Made by a program: the position numbers and the translations under genes
Virus record (IMG/VR): IMGVR_UViG_2671180674_000012
Location: 1 to 22,748 of that record
Direction: 5' to 3' (one strand)
Length of the DNA stretch: 22,748 nucleotides
From: a virus
Lineage: Duplodnaviria > Heunggongvirae > Uroviricota > Caudoviricetes
Notes under the pieces: generated by a model
Seen by the model: the letters and a program-made list of their open reading frames with translations, nothing else
Databases searched by the model: none
Told to the model about the DNA's origin: nothing
Shown here: positions 4,616 to 22,541 of the stretch, in pieces
How positions within the stretch are numbered: the stretch's first letter is position 1
How the letters are laid out: the number at the start of each line of letters is the position of its first letter

Positions 4616-4642
4616 CCGGATACCCCAACAACACAGAGAAGA

Positions 4643-5161
4643 ATGCTATCTGGAATAACTTCATCAATAACGGCAATTAAAGTCTCGATTGATTTATTAC
4701 AGGTAATACTTGATGCAAAAAGCCAATCTGAACGTGAAAAGGCTGTCTACGAAATGCGTCGCCAACTGGCAGACTTACAAATACAGAACGCAGAGCTAGC
4801 GAAAACGCTCGCGCTTCAGTACGAGGAAATACTCTTGCTTAAGCAAAAATGTCATGAAATTGACGAGCGTAATCGAAAACTTGAATGCTATACGATACAC
4901 AAAACTGGTTTTGGGCATTTTGTCTATGCTTTCAGGAACAGCCTCGACGAAGAAGACACATGTTTTCACTATGCCTGTCCCAATTGCTATCAGCATGGTG
5001 TAATAGCAATACTTCAACCTGTTAAAATTGGTGAGCATGATAAGTTCCATATTTCTAAATGCCTGAAATGTGATTCGCGCTTTAAATTTGAACGCAATGA
5101 TGACTATATACCGCCCCCATCTGAAGAAGAGATAGGTAGAGCATTGAGCAGCAATCCGTAG
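4643..5161 (+). CDS. Hypothetical protein, predicted coiled-coil N-terminus and C-terminal CxxC...CxxC zinc-ribbon-like domain; moron antisense to the early-left operon
   Basis: 172-aa ORF from ATG 4643; the Arg-rich N-terminal extension in the ORF track (from 4403) looks non-coding. CPNCYQHG and CLKCDSRF motifs; lower GC than flanks; own promoter-like element. Confidence 0.55.
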   Translation: MLSGITSSITAIKVSIDLLQVILDAKSQSEREKAVYEMRRQLADLQIQNAELAKTLALQYEEILLLKQKCHEIDERNRKLECYTIHKTGFGHFVYAFRNSLDEEDTCFHYACPNCYQHGVIAILQPVKIGEHDKFHISKCLKCDSRFKFERNDDYIPPPSEEEIGRALSSNP

Positions 5162-5323
5162 GTTATTGCTGTTGTGGATATCCAGATTGTTAAAGAGCAT
5201 GCCGGAAGGTTATCCGTGTCCGGCGCACGACCACACGTAGCAGCGTGTTGGTCTCCATTTTTAATTCACCCCTTAATGGAGGATAAAATAATCGTGGTGC
5301 TGGTCGGCTCGGTCCCGCAGGTG

Positions 5324-5959
5324 TTACCCTTTAAACCAGTCAATCCAGAGCGGATAGTGTTCAGCATAAATATAGCTATACACATCCAGGTTGTATTTGC
5401 GGTCTGTCCTTAGCAGGTCGCAAATACAGGCCGCAGCTTCCAGGGCAGCAGCTTTGTTGCTGAATAACCATGTAGCAACATTCCGGCGATTATCTGTATC
5501 CCACTCTTTTGTGAGGGCTGACACCACGAAGGAGCCGTTGGTGTTGCCATCAAATACTTCCGTTTCCAGATTTTTAAGTAATGCCTGGTGAATTTTTGCC
5601 AGGTATTCAGTCGGAATTTCGCCACGAATTCGGATAAGTTTGTCATAAACAAACATGTTCCCCGCATATGGCGATTTTTCTTTCTTTTGTTCACTGGCAG
5701 GCTGGTCAATTTCGTCTTCGGTTGGTTTCGTATTGATGTTTTGCACTGTCGTTTCTGCAATTTTCTTTGCCACACTCTCTGAGTCGTGTTTATTTACAGG
5801 CGCACAGGAATACAGTCCGACAAACGCATCTCGCACATTTCGAGCCATATTATCAGTGTCTTTTTTCGTTACCGATTCCAATGCAAGTTCGTTCAGACGT
5901 TGACGTAGTGTGTGTACTGCAATCTCCTGGATTGATAGCGATAAATCTTTAAATTCCAT
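5324..5959 (-). CDS. Hypothetical early-left protein (211 aa)
   Basis: ATG at 5959 with GAGGT RBS, 11 nt downstream of the preceding gene's stop (operon arrangement). No family recognised. Confidence 0.55.
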   Translation of the reverse strand: MEFKDLSLSIQEIAVHTLRQRLNELALESVTKKDTDNMARNVRDAFVGLYSCAPVNKHDSESVAKKIAETTVQNINTKPTEDEIDQPASEQKKEKSPYAGNMFVYDKLIRIRGEIPTEYLAKIHQALLKNLETEVFDGNTNGSFVVSALTKEWDTDNRRNVATWLFSNKAAALEAAACICDLLRTDRKYNLDVYSYIYAEHYPLWIDWFKG

Positions 5960-13868: not shown

Positions 13869-14206
13869 GAAGGAAACAAACAGAAACAACAATTGCCGTT
13901 ATCTGTTGCCACCAATGACAAGTAAACGTATCTCAGGCGAGCGCATTGCGCCGTTCTGACGCGGATACATTAGCCTGGGCAGAAGGTTCTGGCAATAAAA
14001 AATAGCGTTTTCTTATCGGTGTCGGTAAGATTGTTGCGGGTGCTTGAGGCTGTCTGCCTCGGGCATGCCACTGTAAGGCAGACAGAGAAAAGCCCCAGTT
14101 AACATCACGCGTCCTGCAAGACGCTTAACATTAATCTGAGGCTCAATCCATGCTGAACACATGTAGGTTAGCCTCTTACGTGCCGAAAGGCAAGGAGAAG
14201 CAGGCT

Positions 14207-14362
14207 ATGAAGCAGCAAAAGGCGATGTTAATCGCCCTGATCGTCATCTGTTTAACCGTCATAGTGACGGCACTGGTAACGAGGAAAGACCTCTGCGAGG
14301 TACGAATCCGAACCGGCCAGACGGAGGTCGCTGTCTTCACAGCTTACGAATCTGAGGAGTAA
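14207..14362 (+). CDS. hok: Hok/Gef-family type I toxin (HokD/RelF-like membrane peptide)
   Basis: Product MKQQKAMLIALIVICLTVIVTALVTRKDLCEVRIRTGQTEVAVFTAYESEE is near-identical to Hok/Gef peptides as I recall them; AAGGAG RBS; structured leader and own terminator. Confidence 0.8.
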   Translation: MKQQKAMLIALIVICLTVIVTALVTRKDLCEVRIRTGQTEVAVFTAYESEE

Positions 14363-15122: not shown

Positions 15123-16172
15123 GTGCGGGTATTACTTCGACCTGTTCTGGTACCGGAACTTGGGCTGGTTATCGTTAAGCCAGGCCGTGAATCCATGCAG
15201 GTATTCCATAACGGCAGGGTGCTGGTGGAGCCGGAACCGAAAAACATGCGCGGTCTGCCGTCCGGAGTCGTTCCTGCCGTTCGCCAGCCGCTGGCGGAAG
15301 ATAAAACATTGCTGCCGTTTTTCAGCGATGAGCGTGTGATTCGTGCTGCTGGCGGCGCTGGCGCACTGTCTGACTGGCTCCTGCGTCATGTTAAATCCTG
15401 CCAGTGGCCTCATGGAGACTATCACCACAGTGAAACCGTCATACATCGTTACGGTACCGGCGCAATGGTGTTGTGCTGGCACTGCGACAACCAGCTGCGC
15501 GACCAGACATCCGAATCACTCGGGCAGCTTGCTCAACAAAATCTGACCGCCTGGATGATTGACGTCATACGTCACGCAATAAGTGGTGCACAGGAACGGG
15601 AATTATCGCTGGCTGAATTATCCTGGTGGGCGCTCTGCAATCAGGTAGCGGACGCACTACCGGAGGCAGTATTACGTCGTTCTCTGGGGTTACGCGCGGA
15701 AAAAATCCACTCAGTATACCGCGAGAGTAACATCATACCGGGAGAACAGACAGCCACCAGCATACTGAAGCAGCGCACAAAAAATTTTGCGCCGTTGCCT
15801 CACGCCCACCAGCAACAGAACCCACCACAGGAAAAGACGGTTGTAAGTATCACAGTTGATCCGGAGTCACCGGAATCATTCATGAAGCGGCCTAAACGTC
15901 GCCGCTGGGTGAATGAGAAATACACGCGCTGGGTAAAGACACAGCCGTGTACGTGTTGTGGTAAGCCAGCAGACGATCCCCATCACCTGATTGGTCACGG
16001 TCAGGGCGGAATGGGGACAAAAGCCCACGATATTTTTACGTTGCCGCTGTGCCGGGAACATCACAACGAACTTCATGCAGATCCGCAGGCGTTCGAAGAA
16101 AAGCATGGTTCTCAGGTTGATTTAATTTTTCGTTTTCTTGATCACGCCTTTGCAACTGGCGTACTCGGATAA
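15123..16172 (+). CDS. DUF968-family prophage protein with C-terminal HNH-like zinc-binding motif
   Basis: C-terminal CTCCGKPADDPHHLIGHGQGGMGTKAHDIFTLPLCREHHNELH; sits upstream of rusA and Q as ydfU does in Qin-like prophages. Confidence 0.6.
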   Translation: MRVLLRPVLVPELGLVIVKPGRESMQVFHNGRVLVEPEPKNMRGLPSGVVPAVRQPLAEDKTLLPFFSDERVIRAAGGAGALSDWLLRHVKSCQWPHGDYHHSETVIHRYGTGAMVLCWHCDNQLRDQTSESLGQLAQQNLTAWMIDVIRHAISGAQERELSLAELSWWALCNQVADALPEAVLRRSLGLRAEKIHSVYRESNIIPGEQTATSILKQRTKNFAPLPHAHQQQNPPQEKTVVSITVDPESPESFMKRPKRRRWVNEKYTRWVKTQPCTCCGKPADDPHHLIGHGQGGMGTKAHDIFTLPLCREHHNELHADPQAFEEKHGSQVDLIFRFLDHAFATGVLG

Positions 16173-16184
16173 AAGAGGTTACTG

Positions 16185-16559
16185 ATGGGGATAGAATTTG
16201 TTTTGCCTTACCCGCCGACGGTAAACACCTACTGGCGACGCCGTGGCAGCACATATTTTATATCGGAAGCCGGTAAGCGTTATCGCCGTGATGTGGCACT
16301 TATAGTTCGCCAGCAGAGGCTGAAATTAAACCTGTCCGGAAGGCTGGCGATAACGGTTATTGCCGAGCCTCCGGATAAGCGCCGTCGTGATCTGGACAAT
16401 ATCCTGAAAGCGCCACTGGATGCACTGACACATGCGGGGTTGCTCATAGACGATGAGCAGTTTGATGAAATCAATATTGTGCGCGGTCAGCTCGTTCCTG
16501 GTGGGCGGCTGGGCGTGAAGATTTACGAAATAATGCATGACGGGCAGGTCCAAAAATGA
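16185..16559 (+). CDS. rusA: RusA-family Holliday junction resolvase
   Basis: LPYPPTVNTYWRRRG...PPDKRRRDLDNILKAPLDALTHAGLLIDDEQ matches the RusA signature; AGAGG RBS. Confidence 0.85.
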   Translation: MGIEFVLPYPPTVNTYWRRRGSTYFISEAGKRYRRDVALIVRQQRLKLNLSGRLAITVIAEPPDKRRRDLDNILKAPLDALTHAGLLIDDEQFDEINIVRGQLVPGGRLGVKIYEIMHDGQVQK

Positions 16560-17377
16560 AACTGGAAGATTTACCGAAATACTATTCCCCAAAATCGCCA
16601 GGCCTGACTGATGTATCCGCCTCGACGTCAAAAGATGCACTGAGTATCACTGATGTGATGGCTGCGCAGGGGATGACACAGAACCGGGCTGAGATGGGAT
16701 TTTCTGCGTTCCTGGGGAAAATGGGTATTAGTATGAATGACAGGGTGCGGGCAACAGAATTACTGACAGATTATGCATTAAGTCAGTGCGATCGTGTGGC
16801 GGCGTTAAGGAAACTTCCGGCAGAAATAAAACCGGCAGTGATGCGTATTATGGCTTCGTATGCTTTTGAGGATTATGCCCGCAGCGCAGCGAGTAAAAAG
16901 CAGTGCCCTTGTTGCCATGGGGAAAAATTTATTGAAAGCGAAGTTTTTACAAACAAGGTTCAGTATCCGGATGGTAAGCCGCCAGTATGGGCAAAGTGTA
17001 CAAAAGGCGTGTATCCGTCTTACTGGGAAGAATGGAAAAAAATCCGGGAGGTGGTGAAAGTTTCCTGTCCTGAATGTAAAGGGAAGGGGGAGATCTCCAC
17101 TGCCTGTAAAGACTGCCGTGGGCGTGGTGTTGCCATTCATCGTGAAGAGTCAGAAAAACGGGGTATGCCTGTTATCAGGGGCTGCCGGCGTTGTGGCGGT
17201 CGTGGCTATGAAAGACTGCCATCAACGGAGGCATTTAATGCCATATGCAAAGTGACGAGTGCTATCACGCTTGATACATGGAAAAAATCAGTGAAACGCT
17301 TTTACGATACGTTGGTGGTTCGGTTTGACATTGAAGAGGCATGGGCGGAGCGGCAGTTAAAGATGGTAACGCGATAG
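16556..17377 (+). CDS. Putative late antiterminator (Q-like) with four CxxCxGxG zinc-finger repeats
   Basis: ATGA overlap with rusA; CPCCHGEKF, CPECKGKG, CKDCRGRG, CRRCGGRG; positioned directly upstream of a promoter/terminator pair. Identity as Q is inferred from position. Confidence 0.55.
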   Translation: MKLEDLPKYYSPKSPGLTDVSASTSKDALSITDVMAAQGMTQNRAEMGFSAFLGKMGISMNDRVRATELLTDYALSQCDRVAALRKLPAEIKPAVMRIMASYAFEDYARSAASKKQCPCCHGEKFIESEVFTNKVQYPDGKPPVWAKCTKGVYPSYWEEWKKIREVVKVSCPECKGKGEISTACKDCRGRGVAIHREESEKRGMPVIRGCRRCGGRGYERLPSTEAFNAICKVTSAITLDTWKKSVKRFYDTLVVRFDIEEAWAERQLKMVTR

Positions 17378-17410: not shown

Positions 17411-17458
17411 CGCCCTAACGATGGGCGTTTTGTGCCTGACGTTAGCGTGATTTCTACA

Positions 17459-17481
17459 ACCCGCCAGCGAGCGGGTTTTTT
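17459..17481 (+). terminator. tR'-like terminator downstream of the late promoter
   Basis: Short GC stem (CCGC/GCGG, loop CAGCGA) followed by TTTTTT; an earlier hairpin CGCCC/GGGCG with TTTT lies at 17411-17431. Confidence 0.5.
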
Positions 17482-17642
17482 GTTGTGATAGATAACAACT
17501 CCAGGTGGCATTCATTAGTGAATATTAGTTAATGTGTGCTGCCATGCGTTAAAAGATGTCAATTCGTTATTGACCGATATCAAATTATGGAAAGATGAAT
17601 TTCATTACTATTGAAAATCCGTTGTTTCAATAGGTGATATTT

Positions 17643-18359
17643 ATGCATAAACTAATTAAGCTGTTTTCATTTTTTATTGCACTATCGATATCTCAGTGTT
17701 ATGCCACTAGTAATGAATTCATAAGCGCCAGTAACAGTAGGGCATTTTCATTTTTTTTGCCTACAGGGCAAGCAATGGCTATCCAGTATCTTGATGGACT
17801 TAAAAGATATTCAGCGAGTGAGATTATAGACGATTTCAATAATAATGAATTGAGAGCAAAGAAAAAGTATAAAGATATATTCATCATAAACTCAACAGCG
17901 CGGGCGATTAAGCAAGACCTTGATGATAGGTTTTTTGTTCTGCTAAGGGATGGTAATAGTGGATTTGAATCGTTTTATGCTTACTATGATAAGAAATCAG
18001 AAGGTGACTTAGAGTTTCTTAACGAAGGTGATAATGTGGAGTTTATTTGCTCCAATGTTAAAAACATCATTATGCCAAGAGCGGAATGTTTTTCTATCGC
18101 TTTAAATCTTGAATCTAAAAATATTCAGGGAAACCCTATAAGATTTTTTGATAATGCTTATAAGTTGCAAAACACTTATAAGGCTACAAAAATAACATTT
18201 ATACTTTATTCTCTTCTGAAGGATAAAATTGAAAAGGACTGCGAAGAATCTATTGAAGCATGCAACCTGGCTGCCAGGAGGTTTACGGATAATGGCGCAT
18301 TACTTGACTCCATGCTTGAACCTTATGCGGATATGTTAAGTAAAATCGGTAACAATTAA
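17643..18359 (+). CDS. Secreted protein with Sec-type signal peptide and OB-fold (tRNA_anti-like) domain; AT-rich cargo
   Basis: AGGTGA RBS 5 nt before ATG; N-terminus MHKLIKLFSFFIALSISQCYA; central region resembles the tRNA_anti-like OB-fold pattern from memory; markedly AT-rich. Confidence 0.55.
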   Translation: MHKLIKLFSFFIALSISQCYATSNEFISASNSRAFSFFLPTGQAMAIQYLDGLKRYSASEIIDDFNNNELRAKKKYKDIFIINSTARAIKQDLDDRFFVLLRDGNSGFESFYAYYDKKSEGDLEFLNEGDNVEFICSNVKNIIMPRAECFSIALNLESKNIQGNPIRFFDNAYKLQNTYKATKITFILYSLLKDKIEKDCEESIEACNLAARRFTDNGALLDSMLEPYADMLSKIGNN

Positions 18360-18481
18360 CAAGGTTACATTCCAGGCATCCTGCCAGGGCTGCTTTTTTT
18401 ACCTCATTTACATCTATTGCTTGCTGGCTTTTTGGACAAGAGTTATTGGTATGTCACGTTAACCAGAAAAGGAAAAAAGAC

Positions 18482-18679
18482 ATGCTAAAACAGCAGGATA
18501 TGACCGAAACCGCCAGAGTGGTGTTTAATGAGTTAAGCGTCACCGAACCGGCGACCGTCGGGGAGATTGCACAGAATACTTACCTTTCACGCGAACGCTG
18601 CCAGTTAATACTGACCCAGCTTGTTATGGCGGGTCTGGCAGATTATCAGTTCGGTTGTTACAGACGCCTTTCGCAGTGA
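18482..18679 (+). CDS. Small HTH/winged-helix-like protein (65 aa), possible controller-type regulator
   Basis: ATG with AAAGGA RBS; TVGEIAQNTYLSRERCQLILTQLVMAGL is HTH-like; directly upstream of the methyltransferase. Confidence 0.45.
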   Translation: MLKQQDMTETARVVFNELSVTEPATVGEIAQNTYLSRERCQLILTQLVMAGLADYQFGCYRRLSQ

Positions 18680-18692
18680 AGGCTTTTTTATT
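18665..18692 (+). terminator. Putative terminator overlapping the HTH gene stop
   Basis: GCCTT-loop-AAGGC followed by TTTTTTATTT. Confidence 0.4.
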
Positions 18693-18829
18693 TGTGGTAA
18701 TGGGCGGCTGGTGGGTGTTAGCGGCACCTGCCAGCCATCTGCTCATGCGTTGGGGTCACAAGCAAACCTCAGGCCCATCTGCTTTGCGCAAAAGCGGAAT
18801 GAGCCTATCAGAGAAGTGCTTATTGATCT

Positions 18830-19876
18830 ATGATTAATACTGTAAAAATATCCAGTTGTGAGTTAATCAACGCTGATTGCCTGGAATTTATCCAGACCTT
18901 ACCGGAAAACTCTGTCGATCTGATAGTCACAGACCCGCCATACTTTAAAGTGAAGCCCGAGGGCTGGGATAACCAGTGGAAGGGCGACGCTGATTACCTG
19001 CAATGGCTGGACCAGTGTCTTGCGCAGTTTTGGCGGGTATTAAAACCCGCCGGAAGTCTTTACCTGTTCTGTGGTCATCGCCTGGCATCTGACACCGAAC
19101 TCATGATGCGTGAACGTTTTAATGTGCTGAACCACATTATCTGGGCGAAGCCGTCCGGACGCTGGAATGGGTGCAACAAGGAAAGCCTGCGGGCGTATTT
19201 CCCGGCAACAGAGCGCATTCTGTTTGCCGAACATTATCAGGGGCCATACCAGCCCAAAAGTGACGGTTATGCAGCAAAGGGGCGCGAGCTTAAGCAGCAT
19301 GTCATGGCCCCGCTGATTTCTTACTTTCGTGATGCGCGCGAATCACTGGGGATAACGTCAAAACAGATAGCAGAAGCCACCGGAAAGAAAAACATGGCTT
19401 CGCACTGGTTTGGTACCAGTCAGTGGCAGTTACCGAATGAGGCCGATTACAGTAAACTGCAGGCGCTGTTTGCACGTGTGGCGGCAGAAAAACACCAGCG
19501 CGGTGAACTGGAGCAGCCACACCACCAGCTGGTCAGCACATACAGCGAACTGAACCGGCAATATGCCAGCCTGCTGGAGGAATACAAATCACTGCGGCGT
19601 TATTTTTCCGTATCGGCTGTCGTTCCTTATACGGATGTCTGGACGCACAAGCCCGTGCAGTATTATCCGGGTAAGCATCCCTGTGAAAAACCGGCGGATA
19701 TGTTGCGTCAGATAATTACTGCCAGCAGCCGTCCAGGCGATTTGGTCGCAGATTTTTTTATGGGGTCGGGGTCGACAATAAAAGCGGCACTGTCGCTGGG
19801 ACGCAGGGCGATTGGCGTGGAACTGGAAGAGGAACGTTTTAATCAGACGGTCAGAGAAATAACGAAAGATTTTTAA
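18830..19876 (+). CDS. DNA methyltransferase, N6-adenine/N4-cytosine type, beta-class motif order
   Basis: DPPY catalytic motif near the N-terminus (LIVTDPPYF) and AdoMet motif FFMGSGST near the C-terminus; 348 aa. Confidence 0.85.
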   Translation: MINTVKISSCELINADCLEFIQTLPENSVDLIVTDPPYFKVKPEGWDNQWKGDADYLQWLDQCLAQFWRVLKPAGSLYLFCGHRLASDTELMMRERFNVLNHIIWAKPSGRWNGCNKESLRAYFPATERILFAEHYQGPYQPKSDGYAAKGRELKQHVMAPLISYFRDARESLGITSKQIAEATGKKNMASHWFGTSQWQLPNEADYSKLQALFARVAAEKHQRGELEQPHHQLVSTYSELNRQYASLLEEYKSLRRYFSVSAVVPYTDVWTHKPVQYYPGKHPCEKPADMLRQIITASSRPGDLVADFFMGSGSTIKAALSLGRRAIGVELEEERFNQTVREITKDF

Positions 19877-19984
19877 TTCAGTGATGATATAAGTTGTATA
19901 TTTCTGATACAGATGTATACACATATTTAAAACTGAACACCAAATATATTTTTGATGCCCACACAATCATTGTTAGTATTTGTG

Positions 19985-20008
19985 ACGACCTGAAGGTGGT
20001 CGTTTTGT
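19985..20008 (+). terminator. Putative terminator after the methyltransferase
   Basis: ACGACC/GGTCGT stem with 7-nt loop followed by a T-rich tract. Confidence 0.4.
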
Positions 20009-20433
20009 GTTCACAGGGTGTTAATACCACCGGAAAGGTCAGTGCTGACTTCCTGGTGATCAGTTTGTTGATTCAGTAATAACCGGTCAGCAGTGTGATT
20101 CCGGAAGTCAGCATTTTATGTGTGAGGGTAATTTCTGCTACCCGCACTGGTAAACAAATGAGGCATATCGTTTCAGCACTGGCGAGTTTCGCGGAGAACA
20201 GGTTTTGCAAGCGCCTTTGTCGTTCTTCATTCTGTAATATCTGACTGATTACAGTTTCGGTGCTGTTTTTTACATTGTTAACGTTGTGTATCATCGGATG
20301 GTTTTTATCAGAATGAGTCGCTGCCTGTTTCGGGGTCTGTGATTCGTCAGAATTACGTTGCAGGCTGACGAATCATTCTGGTAGTAACCATACAATTAAA
20401 CGCTGTCTAATTCTTATACGATGAATGCTTTGG

Positions 20434-20556: not shown

Positions 20557-21048
20557 GTGATCACATATGCAGACATTCGGGCAAAGCAGGCTGAAATTCA
20601 GGAGGCCAGACAGGAGTACATCCAGCGACTGCGGGATATGGCAAAAAGGCTGGTCAAGACCTATGAAGACTCACTGGCATTGCCGAAACCACGATGGCTG
20701 GATATTGAGGGTAACTCCCATCCCTATGTTTATCTTTCTCATGATAGTTGTTGTGAGAAACCGGAGGATTTGCAGGTAGATTTTCAGGATGGGGTTACTT
20801 TTAATTTATATACGGTTGTTGATGATGATCCCCGCCAGTCTGTAAGTGTGAATATTACAGTGAGTATTCTGTTACTTGATGGCGACAACATGACGATTTC
20901 GGTTGATGGTTATCAGGCCAGGACATTTTCGCATGTGGATACCAACGCAAAAATTAATGAAGTGTGCGAATACATTAAAGACAGCATACTTATGTCAATG
21001 AATGAAGTGACGTTTGGCAAAAAATCCCTTTCAGAAGTGAAAGGGTAA
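20557..21048 (+). CDS. Hypothetical protein (163 aa)
   Basis: GTG start with AGGAG 10 nt upstream (the ORF-track start at 20425 lies inside the terminator and has a hydrophobic junk-like N-terminus); followed by its own terminator. Confidence 0.5.
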   Translation: MITYADIRAKQAEIQEARQEYIQRLRDMAKRLVKTYEDSLALPKPRWLDIEGNSHPYVYLSHDSCCEKPEDLQVDFQDGVTFNLYTVVDDDPRQSVSVNITVSILLLDGDNMTISVDGYQARTFSHVDTNAKINEVCEYIKDSILMSMNEVTFGKKSLSEVKG

Positions 21049-21245: not shown

Positions 21246-21671
21246 ATGTTTGGTATTTTCAAAAAGAAAACCCGTAAGGCTATTACTGAAGTGAAGAAAA
21301 TGGAGAACCGCGACGCGGTGGAGGCGACCGTCTGGGGCGCGTATTCCATTGCATACGCTGACGACACCTGTGACGCGAAAGAAATTGCGGTACTGGAGAA
21401 AACCATTGCAGCACTTCCTGCCTTTGCGCCGTTCTCCGGTGAGATTGCCCAGATGAGCGCGAATATCCGCGCCCGTTATGAAGCATCGCCGCGTTCTGCC
21501 AATGCTGAAGCCCTCCGTCAACTGGCTGATGTCGCCGGTACTGATGATGCCGTTAATGTGCTGTGCCTGTGTCTGGATATCGCAGACCAGGATGGCATTG
21601 GTCCGGATGAAGAAGCACAGCTCAAGAAAATTGCTCAGGCGCTGCAGTTACCGCTGGAGCAGTACCTGTGA
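21246..21671 (+). CDS. TerB-like (tellurite-resistance TerB family) protein
   Basis: 141-aa product with AAGGA RBS; helical, acidic composition and motifs (EIAVLEKTIAALP, VNVLCLCLDIADQDGIGPDEEAQLKKIAQAL) resemble the TerB fold from memory. Confidence 0.6.
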   Translation: MFGIFKKKTRKAITEVKKMENRDAVEATVWGAYSIAYADDTCDAKEIAVLEKTIAALPAFAPFSGEIAQMSANIRARYEASPRSANAEALRQLADVAGTDDAVNVLCLCLDIADQDGIGPDEEAQLKKIAQALQLPLEQYL

Positions 21672-21834: not shown

Positions 21835-21862
21835 GCGGGCATTGAAAGCCCGCTGCATTTTT
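21835..21862 (+). terminator. Terminator between convergent genes
   Basis: GCGGGC-ATTGAAA-GCCCGC followed by TGCATTTTTA; overlaps the stop codon of the minus-strand DUF4145 gene. Confidence 0.45.
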
Positions 21863-22541
21863 ATTGCTGCTGTTCCTTAATGCGTTCCGGTAGCACAAAT
21901 GCCACTTCAAGGAACAGGCGGAGAAACGCCACAAACTCTTTTGCCTGTTCACCACTGGCCTCGAGCTCGTGCACAGCCTCATTGCCTTCCATACGGATTC
22001 GGTGAGCCCAGTTTCTCATTGATTCCGTCAGTATGCCGTCCTGCCGTGCCAGTTCAATGCGTGACAGCAGATTGCCTTTTTCGTACCCCAGGGCACGGAG
22101 GGCAACCTCGAGGACGCTACGGCAGCCAACAATGATACGCGGGGCGGTTCTGCCGGACCGAACATCCTCCTGCAACTCGGTGAAGACTGCGCGAATTTTT
22201 TCGGGATAGTGGGGGGAGTCATCGGGCAGCCTGAGTTCAGGATAGATTTTGATGCTTCCCTCAAGTGGAGCATTCAGCACCCAGGCTTTGTTGTTGATGG
22301 CTTTTTTCATGTCCACCAGTTCACTGACTGAACATTCGAATGCGATCATTAATGGGTTGTTACATTCTGTGCAAAAGTCTGTTGAGTATGCTTTTGCTGA
22401 TGTTATTTCAGAGGTGCGCGGCTGTTGCACGTAAAGCTTGTTTTCTGTAGCCGGGCGCCTGCTGTGGTACTGGGTGACCTCATTCAGAGAAATATGAACC
22501 TGATGAAGGCAGTACGGGCATCTAATTTTCAGGGAGTACAT
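21861..22541 (-). CDS. Zinc-ribbon plus DUF4145-domain protein
   Basis: ATG at 22541 with AAGAGG upstream; N-terminus MYSLKIRCPYC...CTECNNP; C-terminus matches my recollection of DUF4145 (RSVLEVALRALG...NWAHRIRMEGNEAVHE...FVLPERI). The ORF-track extension to 22730 lacks an RBS. Confidence 0.6.
   Translation of the reverse strand: MYSLKIRCPYCLHQVHISLNEVTQYHSRRPATENKLYVQQPRTSEITSAKAYSTDFCTECNNPLMIAFECSVSELVDMKKAINNKAWVLNAPLEGSIKIYPELRLPDDSPHYPEKIRAVFTELQEDVRSGRTAPRIIVGCRSVLEVALRALGYEKGNLLSRIELARQDGILTESMRNWAHRIRMEGNEAVHELEASGEQAKEFVAFLRLFLEVAFVLPERIKEQQQ

Follow-up and report, generated by a model that had tools for sequence, protein, structure and literature searches.

M.EcoGII is widely used as a reagent for adenine-methylation footprinting. 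In phage Mu, the toxic DNA-modification gene mom is translated with the help of the small protein Com, an activator that opens an inhibitory stem-loop. M.EcoGII itself is a 349-aa, beta-class, prophage-encoded methyltransferase that modifies adenine at N6 non-specifically (Murray et al. 2018, PMC5778455), and a very similar enzyme is encoded by phage 1720a-02 (named in PMC5778455). M.EcoGI and M.EcoGII were silent in the lysogen, and clones expressing them constitutively grew poorly (PMC5778455); homologues in two O111 Shiga toxin-producing E. coli strains gave no methylation signal (PMC6602927). Silence and harm to the cell are also described in a review, which draws a parallel between Mom and M.EcoGII (PMC12707154). 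The orphan methyltransferases of other phages, such as P1 Dmt, T4 Dam and the Bacillus multispecific C5 methylases, act against restriction or in phage regulation (PMC12707154). Here we describe a relative of M.EcoGII, with the small gene and the spacer that precede it, in a stretch of 22,748 nucleotides (positions 1 to 22,748 of IMG/VR virus record IMGVR_UViG_2671180674_000012), which is called the window below and whose numbering is used throughout.

The methyltransferase carries its motifs in beta-class order, as an earlier note on this DNA had read them, with TDPPY at residues 33-37 and FMGSG at residues 310-314. It matched Pfam PF01555 (N6_N4_Mtase, E 4e-44, covering residues 29-340) and the PADLOC model MTase_II (E 4e-152). 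End-to-end alignment with M.EcoGII, including the target-recognition region, found 294/345 residues identical (85%), and end-to-end alignment with the reconstructed ancestor Anc291 found 306/345 (89%); both reference sequences were obtained by machine reading of the PMC11551740 supplement, with a few reading errors. Anc291 is active and methylates DNA and RNA with no discernible motif, being largely non-site-specific (PMC11551740). No solved structure of M.EcoGII was found, the best sequence matches among solved structures being distant beta-class methyltransferases. Judged by its sequence, the window enzyme is an M.EcoGII orthologue and an ordinary prophage copy, and by orthology it would methylate adenines in nearly any sequence context.

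We think it probable that 18420-19876 is a mobile late-region cassette, consisting of a motif, a winged-helix gene, a hairpin (P1), a structured leader of about 135 nt and the M.EcoGII-type methyltransferase, and that this orphan late anti-restriction enzyme is kept under layered silencing. The parts of the cassette are as follows.

18420-18456, plus strand: bipartite motif CTTGCTG-N12-AGAGTTA..GT.TGT, 26-62 nt upstream of the ATG of the winged-helix gene
18482-18679, plus strand: gene for a stand-alone winged helix-turn-helix (wHTH) protein of 65 aa, phrog_331, the usual upstream partner of the methyltransferase
18666-18693, plus strand: hairpin P1 (GCCTTTCGCAGTGAAGGC, 18666-18683) followed by TTTTTTATTT (T6), lying over the wHTH stop codon
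18699-18829, plus strand: leader core, conserved and supported by covariation
18699-18719: invariant 21-mer AATGGGCGGCTGGTGGGTGTT
18700-18705/18741-18746: helix Ha
18706-18717/18725-18736: helix P2
18753-18763/18818-18829: helix P3
18771-18778/18799-18806: helix P4
18779-18785/18791-18797: helix P5
18830-19876, plus strand: open reading frame (ORF) of 348 aa, orphan N6-adenine DNA methyltransferase of the beta class, M.EcoGII family

The 150-nt spacer between the two genes was conserved as much as or more than the genes flanking it, with several 1-nt indels. Using nhmmer and a covariance model (R1), the leader was found to abut the methyltransferase ATG in 46 species-level loci; 13 of these lack the wHTH gene, which assigns the leader to the methyltransferase rather than to its small neighbour. 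A scan of the whole window against Rfam 15 at gathering thresholds gave no match to the leader, and a search of the cassette at E values up to 10 gave a single chance match, on the opposite strand. The window leader folds at -68.7 kcal/mol (z = -3.2 versus shuffles). In a MAFFT alignment of 45 distinct sequences, 93.9% of helix cells were paired, versus 29-41% with the partners slid, and 12 pairs showed double compensatory changes, versus 4.3 in shuffles, with 0/500 shuffles attaining 12. The model-fitted alignment had 95.7% of cells paired and 13 pairs with compensatory changes, and the slid controls had 3-7 compensatory pairs; for the two alignments together (12-13 pairs) the shuffle value is about 4.5. 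In P2 the swapped segments were GGCUGG/CCAGCC, GACUGU/ACAGUC, GACAGU/GCUGUC and GGCCAG/CUGGCC; in P3, AAGC/GCUU was swapped to GGA/UCC; and in P4, G-C was swapped to A-U and U-A to C-G. The fold is rich in G-U pairs and reverse-strand scores were ≤26 bits, which argues for an RNA of the sense strand. A minus-strand RNA or a DNA cruciform was ruled out on the same two grounds.

The spacer might also be conserved as a DNA-level signal (promoter, operator or recombination joint), or as a short leader peptide, and not for an RNA fold. Such a reading would accommodate the invariant 21-mer and several unpaired stretches, which pairing alone leaves unexplained, the recombination breakpoints that fall inside P2, and the short ORF opened by the AUG of the 21-mer, which reads MGGWWVL-stop in 21/50 relatives. 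It does not account for the compensatory double changes in P2, P3 and P4, for the G-U pairs that make the fold strand-specific, or for a leader of 133-138 nt without a reading frame that stays open in every sequence; the Proteus leader peptide is wholly changed, with the helices kept. We therefore regard a DNA signal or peptide as an improbable basis for the conservation. In the window, the ORF from the invariant AUG has 45 codons (18700-18837) and its TAA overlaps the methyltransferase ATG. Coupling through this upstream ORF was rejected as a conserved feature, the ORF ranging from 3 to 45 codons, with 7 in most sequences.

The 3′ strand of P3 (18818-18829) ends one base before the methyltransferase ATG. 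This start has no Shine-Dalgarno sequence and an unpaired probability of 0.30, versus 0.62 for the start region of the wHTH gene. A GATC (Dam site) at 18825-18828 on the plus strand, one base upstream of the same ATG, is almost invariant across genera, and the P3 5′ strand paired with it (18754-18757) is also GATC in some relatives. This GATC may serve pairing, or it may make the start sensitive to Dam or SeqA as at Mu mom.

Hairpin P1 resembles an intrinsic terminator. A hairpin was kept at this position, with differing sequences, in loci with and without the wHTH gene, and sites satisfying strict terminator criteria were found in 30/74 spacers, versus 5.6 in shuffles. Literature searches with the leader sequence and with descriptions of the upstream gene found no mention of the leader, of a dedicated wHTH gene or of its motif, and both the leader RNA and its wHTH partner appear undescribed. 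We propose tentatively, with slightly less than even confidence, that the spacer of about 135-175 nt before M.EcoGII-type methyltransferases, with its five helices, represents an undescribed class of cis-regulatory RNA that gates translation, and perhaps transcription, of a toxic, non-specific methylase; it may act with the wHTH protein or a ligand, following a logic like that of com-mom with unrelated parts.

The small gene upstream of the methyltransferase was confirmed as an ORF of 65 aa at 18482-18679, 150 nt from the methyltransferase and with a good Shine-Dalgarno sequence (AAGGA). It is a real conserved gene (phrog_331, E 1e-37; 335 clusters at 90% identity) from a very narrow family, of which a set of 1.84 billion proteins contains 61 representatives at 50% clustering. 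AlphaFold models the protein as a canonical winged helix (H1-strand-H2-H3-wing), with a predicted local distance difference test (pLDDT) score of 73.8. Its nearest folds are generic winged helices of the IclR, MarR, SelB and methyltransferase-dimerisation kinds, none of them significant (best E 0.0036), and a match to TrmB was weak (E 0.0025, below the Pfam cut-off). The protein has only two conserved cysteines. A role as a reader of N6-methyladenine (m6A) was dropped, DpnI-type m6A readers not being among the top fold matches.

The suggestion of the earlier note that this protein resembles the controller proteins of restriction-modification (R-M) systems fails on both fold and context, as it is a winged helix with no HTH_3 match and no endonuclease accompanies it. 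C proteins have an Xre-type HTH (Pfam HTH_3 class), are encoded beside an endonuclease gene and bind tandem palindromic C-boxes. The locus shares with C.PvuII and C.AhdI a small protein, putatively DNA-binding here, just upstream of a methylation-related gene and a conserved motif 5′ of the small protein's own gene. It differs in having a winged helix instead of an Xre-type protein, a motif that reads as bipartite and not as tandem palindromic C-boxes, and no endonuclease partner.

A wHTH homologue was located directly upstream of the methyltransferase in about 57/80 species-level loci, even where protein identity was down to 38-50%. About 18/80, from several genera, have an intact methyltransferase and leader with unrelated genes in place of wHTH. 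Among 119 IMG/VR loci, 104 carried both genes, 5 the methyltransferase only and 4 wHTH only, and 7 were cut by contig ends. The loci L007 (6196-6882), L032, L070, L096 and L115 are decayed or recombined cassettes. They comprise one Klebsiella locus that kept the wHTH gene and lost the methyltransferase, and the four IMG/VR loci with wHTH only, in which the gene and the 5′ half of the leader give way to AT-rich DNA of unrelated sequence at a breakpoint within the 3′ arm of P2.

The motif at 18420-18456 occurs once per locus and on the same strand, and it lies directly 5′ of the wHTH gene in each locus whose context was checked. Its N12 spacing was kept in 166/166 occurrences, even with wHTH proteins only about 40% identical, and the motif is absent from methyltransferase loci without wHTH. 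Its two parts are arranged much as in a promoter, unlike the tandem palindromes of C-boxes: TTGCTG is followed after 17 nt by TAYNNG, about 30 nt before the Shine-Dalgarno sequence, and a terminator often precedes it. These features suggest a promoter-like element or candidate protein-binding site, which we read as the putative promoter and operator of the wHTH gene itself.

This layout, with its own upstream motif, often a terminator before it and hairpin P1 after it, is also that of a moron, and the wHTH gene might be one that travels with the methyltransferase and regulates host or other phage genes without controlling its neighbour. The four IMG/VR loci with wHTH but without the methyltransferase would fit this, as would the methyltransferase-only loci. 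However, the linkage holds down to 38-50% identity, in constant order and with a spacing of about 150 nt, across Enterobacterales; the narrowness of the family (61 representatives) likewise tells against independent travel; and wherever a fetched locus showed its context, wHTH adjoined this methyltransferase or a remnant of the leader. An independent moron is thus an unlikely, though still credible, identity for the gene. Most likely the wHTH protein is an accessory regulator of the cassette, a DNA-binding autoregulator or a repressor that would tighten silencing; since some cassettes persist in its absence, we favour these DNA-binding roles over that of an obligatory activator.

The window was found by ORF, Pfam, phrog and terminator scans to be a mosaic lambdoid E. 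coli prophage. The features around the cassette are as follows.

15123-16172: DUF968 gene
16185-16559: RusA gene
16556-17377: gene for antiterminator Q (Pfam PF03589)
17411-17427: terminator-like hairpin, one of two 3′ of Q, from the terminator scan
17458-17485, plus strand: strong intrinsic terminator just 3′ of Q (hairpin 17458-17477), from the terminator scan
17634-18359, plus strand: low-GC gene for an OB-fold protein (tRNA_anti-like, weak match)
20557-21048, plus strand: gene for the phrog_5091 protein
21246-21671: gene for a TerB-like protein
21861-22541, minus strand: gene for the DUF4145 protein

The terminator at 17458-17485 is presumed to be tR′, to be read through by late transcription. 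Homology of the Q block to other phages stops at about 17481-17485, directly after it, and in E. coli strain C5 the arrangement of the window is continued by holin, holin and endolysin genes just beyond the point where the window ends. By these two observations the cassette is part of the late operon; it occupies the slot separating Q from the lysis genes, where stx is found in Stx phages. In Escherichia, Salmonella, Klebsiella, Buttiauxella and metagenomic contigs, the cassette was always found after Q and before the lysis cassette. Four Q families precede it (PF03589, PF06530, PF06323 and DUF1133), and holin and endolysin genes, or tRNAs plus stx, follow it.

The gene at 17634-18359 has 35% GC versus about 50% around it and encodes a protein whose N-terminus is hydrophobic. 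The gene sits as an insertion between tR′ and the cassette, where other phages have OmpC, a GIY-YIG protein or nothing. A tRNA search of the window found none; relatives carry tRNA genes 3′ of the methyltransferase (tRNA-Gly in strain C5, ileZ and argO in phiP27), and in the window this stretch is replaced at 19877-20424 (plus strand; compare L215, 3912-3984), with similarity breaking at about 20115. At 14038-14212 on the plus strand, Rfam RF01794 matched the antitoxin RNA sok (114 bits, E 1e-25), which points to a hok/sok-type toxin-antitoxin module in the nin region; mok/hok may be read from the ORF at 14150-14362.

Phage phiP27, phage 1720a-02 and many Stx2a, Stx2c and Stx2d phages share the block 18419-19858, with nucleotide identities of 81-92%, and the cassette was found in 2157/5426 complete E. 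coli genomes. The enzyme of phage 1720a-02 is match H8 of our search, and it too lies in a wHTH-leader-methyltransferase block. The 80 species-level methyltransferase loci, at 61-87% identity, range from Escherichia to Proteus, Morganella, Xenorhabdus and Photorhabdus. A profile-based viral scan aimed at more distant methyltransferase relatives returned close ones only, and the association of leader and wHTH is described here within that range. The block is kept as a unit, with flanking genes that change from phage to phage: OmpC, a GIY-YIG protein, an OB-fold protein, a truncated stx2A gene, a toxin-antitoxin pair, or a holin straight after the methyltransferase. In phiP27, a GIY-YIG protein lies upstream and tRNAs plus stx2e lie downstream; in Salmonella and Klebsiella phages, a holin or TerB-like gene directly follows the methyltransferase. 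The GIY-YIG family protein of phiP27 has 409 aa and is encoded between Q and the winged-helix gene (4618-5847 of that locus, L002). Some wH-GIY-YIG enzymes are m6A-dependent nucleases, and finding such a nuclease beside a hypermethylating enzyme would be strange.

The earlier note had recognised no restriction endonuclease nearby, and indeed no PADLOC restriction model matched any neighbour in the window. The variable neighbours, with a holin directly after the methyltransferase in some phages, argue against a conserved nuclease partner, and none of more than 200 loci had an endonuclease gene in the cassette. An enzyme that modifies almost every adenine would moreover mark no particular site that a cognate endonuclease could spare. 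It had also been suggested that the methyltransferase is the modification half of a system with one of the neighbours as effector; the wHTH and methyltransferase genes would then be the control and modification half of an R-M system, and the nuclease would be the unrecognised product of 20557-21048 or the DUF4145 protein. The product of 20557-21048 has no Pfam or phrog function, and DUF4145 lies in the HEPN nuclease superfamily and occurs at times fused or linked to R-M components (PMC3710099). However, both genes are absent from most cassette loci, the block being conserved while its flanking genes vary, and the gene following the methyltransferase is a holin or TerB-like gene, or tRNAs plus stx2e, in the phages named above. 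The enzyme is predicted to be near-universal for adenine, and M.EcoGI and M.EcoGII have been treated as orphans (PMC5778455, PMC6602927). On these comparative grounds we reject the R-M system, which has a very remote chance of being correct. The other suggestion, of an orphan phage methyltransferase evading host restriction, is supported by the sequence comparison and can be sharpened to an M.EcoGII orthologue at 85% identity.

Nuclease folds had been proposed as a feature to look for in the two neighbours, and the outcome differed between them. The model of the 20557-21048 protein was confident (pLDDT 82) but matched no solved fold (best E 0.49), and the protein was rejected as a nuclease. 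It is predicted to consist of a long helix, a beta-sheet and a C-terminal helix, with no PDB match, and phrog_5091 is a very small family of 19 clusters, all from Enterobacteriaceae. The DUF4145 protein does appear to have a nuclease fold, but one of the HEPN RNase kind found in RAZR/PD-T7-4. RAZR (formerly PD-T7-4) is an abortive-infection RNase that acts on its own once phage portal rings activate it. Its architecture of an N-terminal zinc ribbon and a C-terminal DUF4145 HEPN domain with R-x7-H also appears to be that of the window protein, which has a DUF4145 domain (E 2e-11), the Cys pairs CPYC and CTEC in its N-terminal part, and RMEGNEAVH, in which the spacing of RAZR R146/H154 is kept; the PADLOC PD-T7-4 match was weak (E 0.0011). 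By these features it resembles a portal-ring-activated RNase, not a DNA endonuclease, and it is, as far as sequence can tell, a separate candidate defence gene and not a methylation-sensitive DNA nuclease. Its gene points against the late operon, as expected of a defence gene expressed in the lysogen.

The methyltransferase is thus of a known kind, an orphan and presumably anti-restriction methylase, and not a hidden R-M system. As constitutive production is harmful, several layers appear to keep the enzyme off in the lysogen. The first would be its position behind tR′, the second the terminator-like P1 directly upstream, and the third the closing helix P3 of the leader, which, near an ATG without a Shine-Dalgarno sequence, would limit translation; the wHTH protein, with its own promoter-like motif, may tighten silencing as an accessory regulator. 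The methyltransferase would be transcribed only in late lytic growth, once Q drives read-through of the terminators that follow pR′. Broad N6-methylation of progeny DNA would then precede packaging and protect that DNA in the next host from restriction that is sensitive to adenine methylation. This explanation, which we hold to be probable as a whole, is built on the orthology, the late position, the conservation of the cassette beside variable neighbours and the covariation-supported fold; non-specific activity, lysogen silence and cellular harm come from the published work, and the dependence on Q, the anti-restriction role, the translational occlusion by the leader and the role of wHTH are inferred.

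Several observations pull the other way. Strict terminator criteria were satisfied in only about 40% of spacers, the motif fits the sigma-70 consensus poorly (3/6 in each hexamer), and the wHTH gene is missing from about 20% of intact loci, so that it is not essential for the methyltransferase. The non-specificity ascribed to the enzyme comes from 85-89% identity, with 15% divergence from M.EcoGII. In the leader, the conserved unpaired stretches (AACC, UAUCAGAG, the GCGCA loop and the invariant 21-mer) suggest a ligand, a protein or a tertiary fold beyond simple occlusion. UGGGC (18701-18705) can alternatively pair with GCCCA, and the leader fold may thus switch between states; both segments are invariant, and covariation cannot judge that pairing. 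In Xenorhabdus and Photorhabdus, only the 5′ half of the leader remains: both P1 and a hairpin like P2 are present, the 3′ domain is shorter, and a U-tract follows the P2-like hairpin in several Xenorhabdus loci.

The part worth following is the leader RNA with its dedicated wHTH gene and the motif upstream of that gene. A conserved structured RNA that is absent from Rfam and has a dedicated partner protein is a concrete, testable object, and the literature searched holds no description of how M.EcoGII is naturally silenced by its host. About 40% of complete E. coli genomes carry the cassette, and in many Shiga-toxin phages stx follows it directly; the transcript that runs into the toxin genes therefore includes the terminators and leader of the cassette.

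Compared with M.EcoGII and M.EcoGI of the E. coli O104:H4 C227-11 prophage, the window enzyme is alike in length (348 versus 349 aa), in beta-class order, in its lambdoid prophage setting and in having no cognate endonuclease. It differs from M.EcoGII in 15% of the sequence, and the published descriptions examined mention no upstream winged-helix gene or structured leader. P1 Dmt, T4 Dam and the Bacillus C5 methylases are likewise phage-encoded and nuclease-free, are switched on at induction or infection and protect phage DNA. They are site-specific or multispecific, whereas the M.EcoGII family is essentially non-specific for adenine and correspondingly harmful.

With Mu com-mom, the locus shares a small gene directly 5′ of a toxic late modification gene that is silent in lysogens. 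The start region is occluded by an RNA helix in Mu, and this is predicted for the window from P3 covariation, the missing Shine-Dalgarno sequence and low accessibility; layered transcriptional and translational control is likewise inferred. By this analogy, the wHTH protein could be a Com-like translational activator that binds the leader RNA, opens P3 and permits translation of the methyltransferase. Besides the gene order and the covariation-supported helix at the start, winged helices can bind RNA hairpins, and SelB winged-helix domains were among the fold matches. The parallel already drawn between Mom and M.EcoGII (PMC12707154) also favours it. Yet an obligatory activator would forbid the roughly 18/80 loci, from several genera, in which an intact methyltransferase and leader occur without wHTH; a promoter-like DNA motif of its own is more in keeping with a regulator that binds DNA; Com is built as a zinc finger and not as a winged helix; and the fold matches, SelB included, are generic (best E 0.0036). 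We consider such an activator quite unlikely, and prefer the accessory DNA-binding regulator. The two systems have no homology, and the small proteins are of different folds. Mom is not an S-adenosylmethionine-dependent methyltransferase of the M.EcoGII class, a single stem-loop in Mu stands against a five-helix leader of about 135 nt in the window, and the wHTH gene is dispensable in about 20% of loci. Therefore, we regard Mu com-mom as the nearest functional analogy for this cassette, with membership failing on the nature of the small protein.

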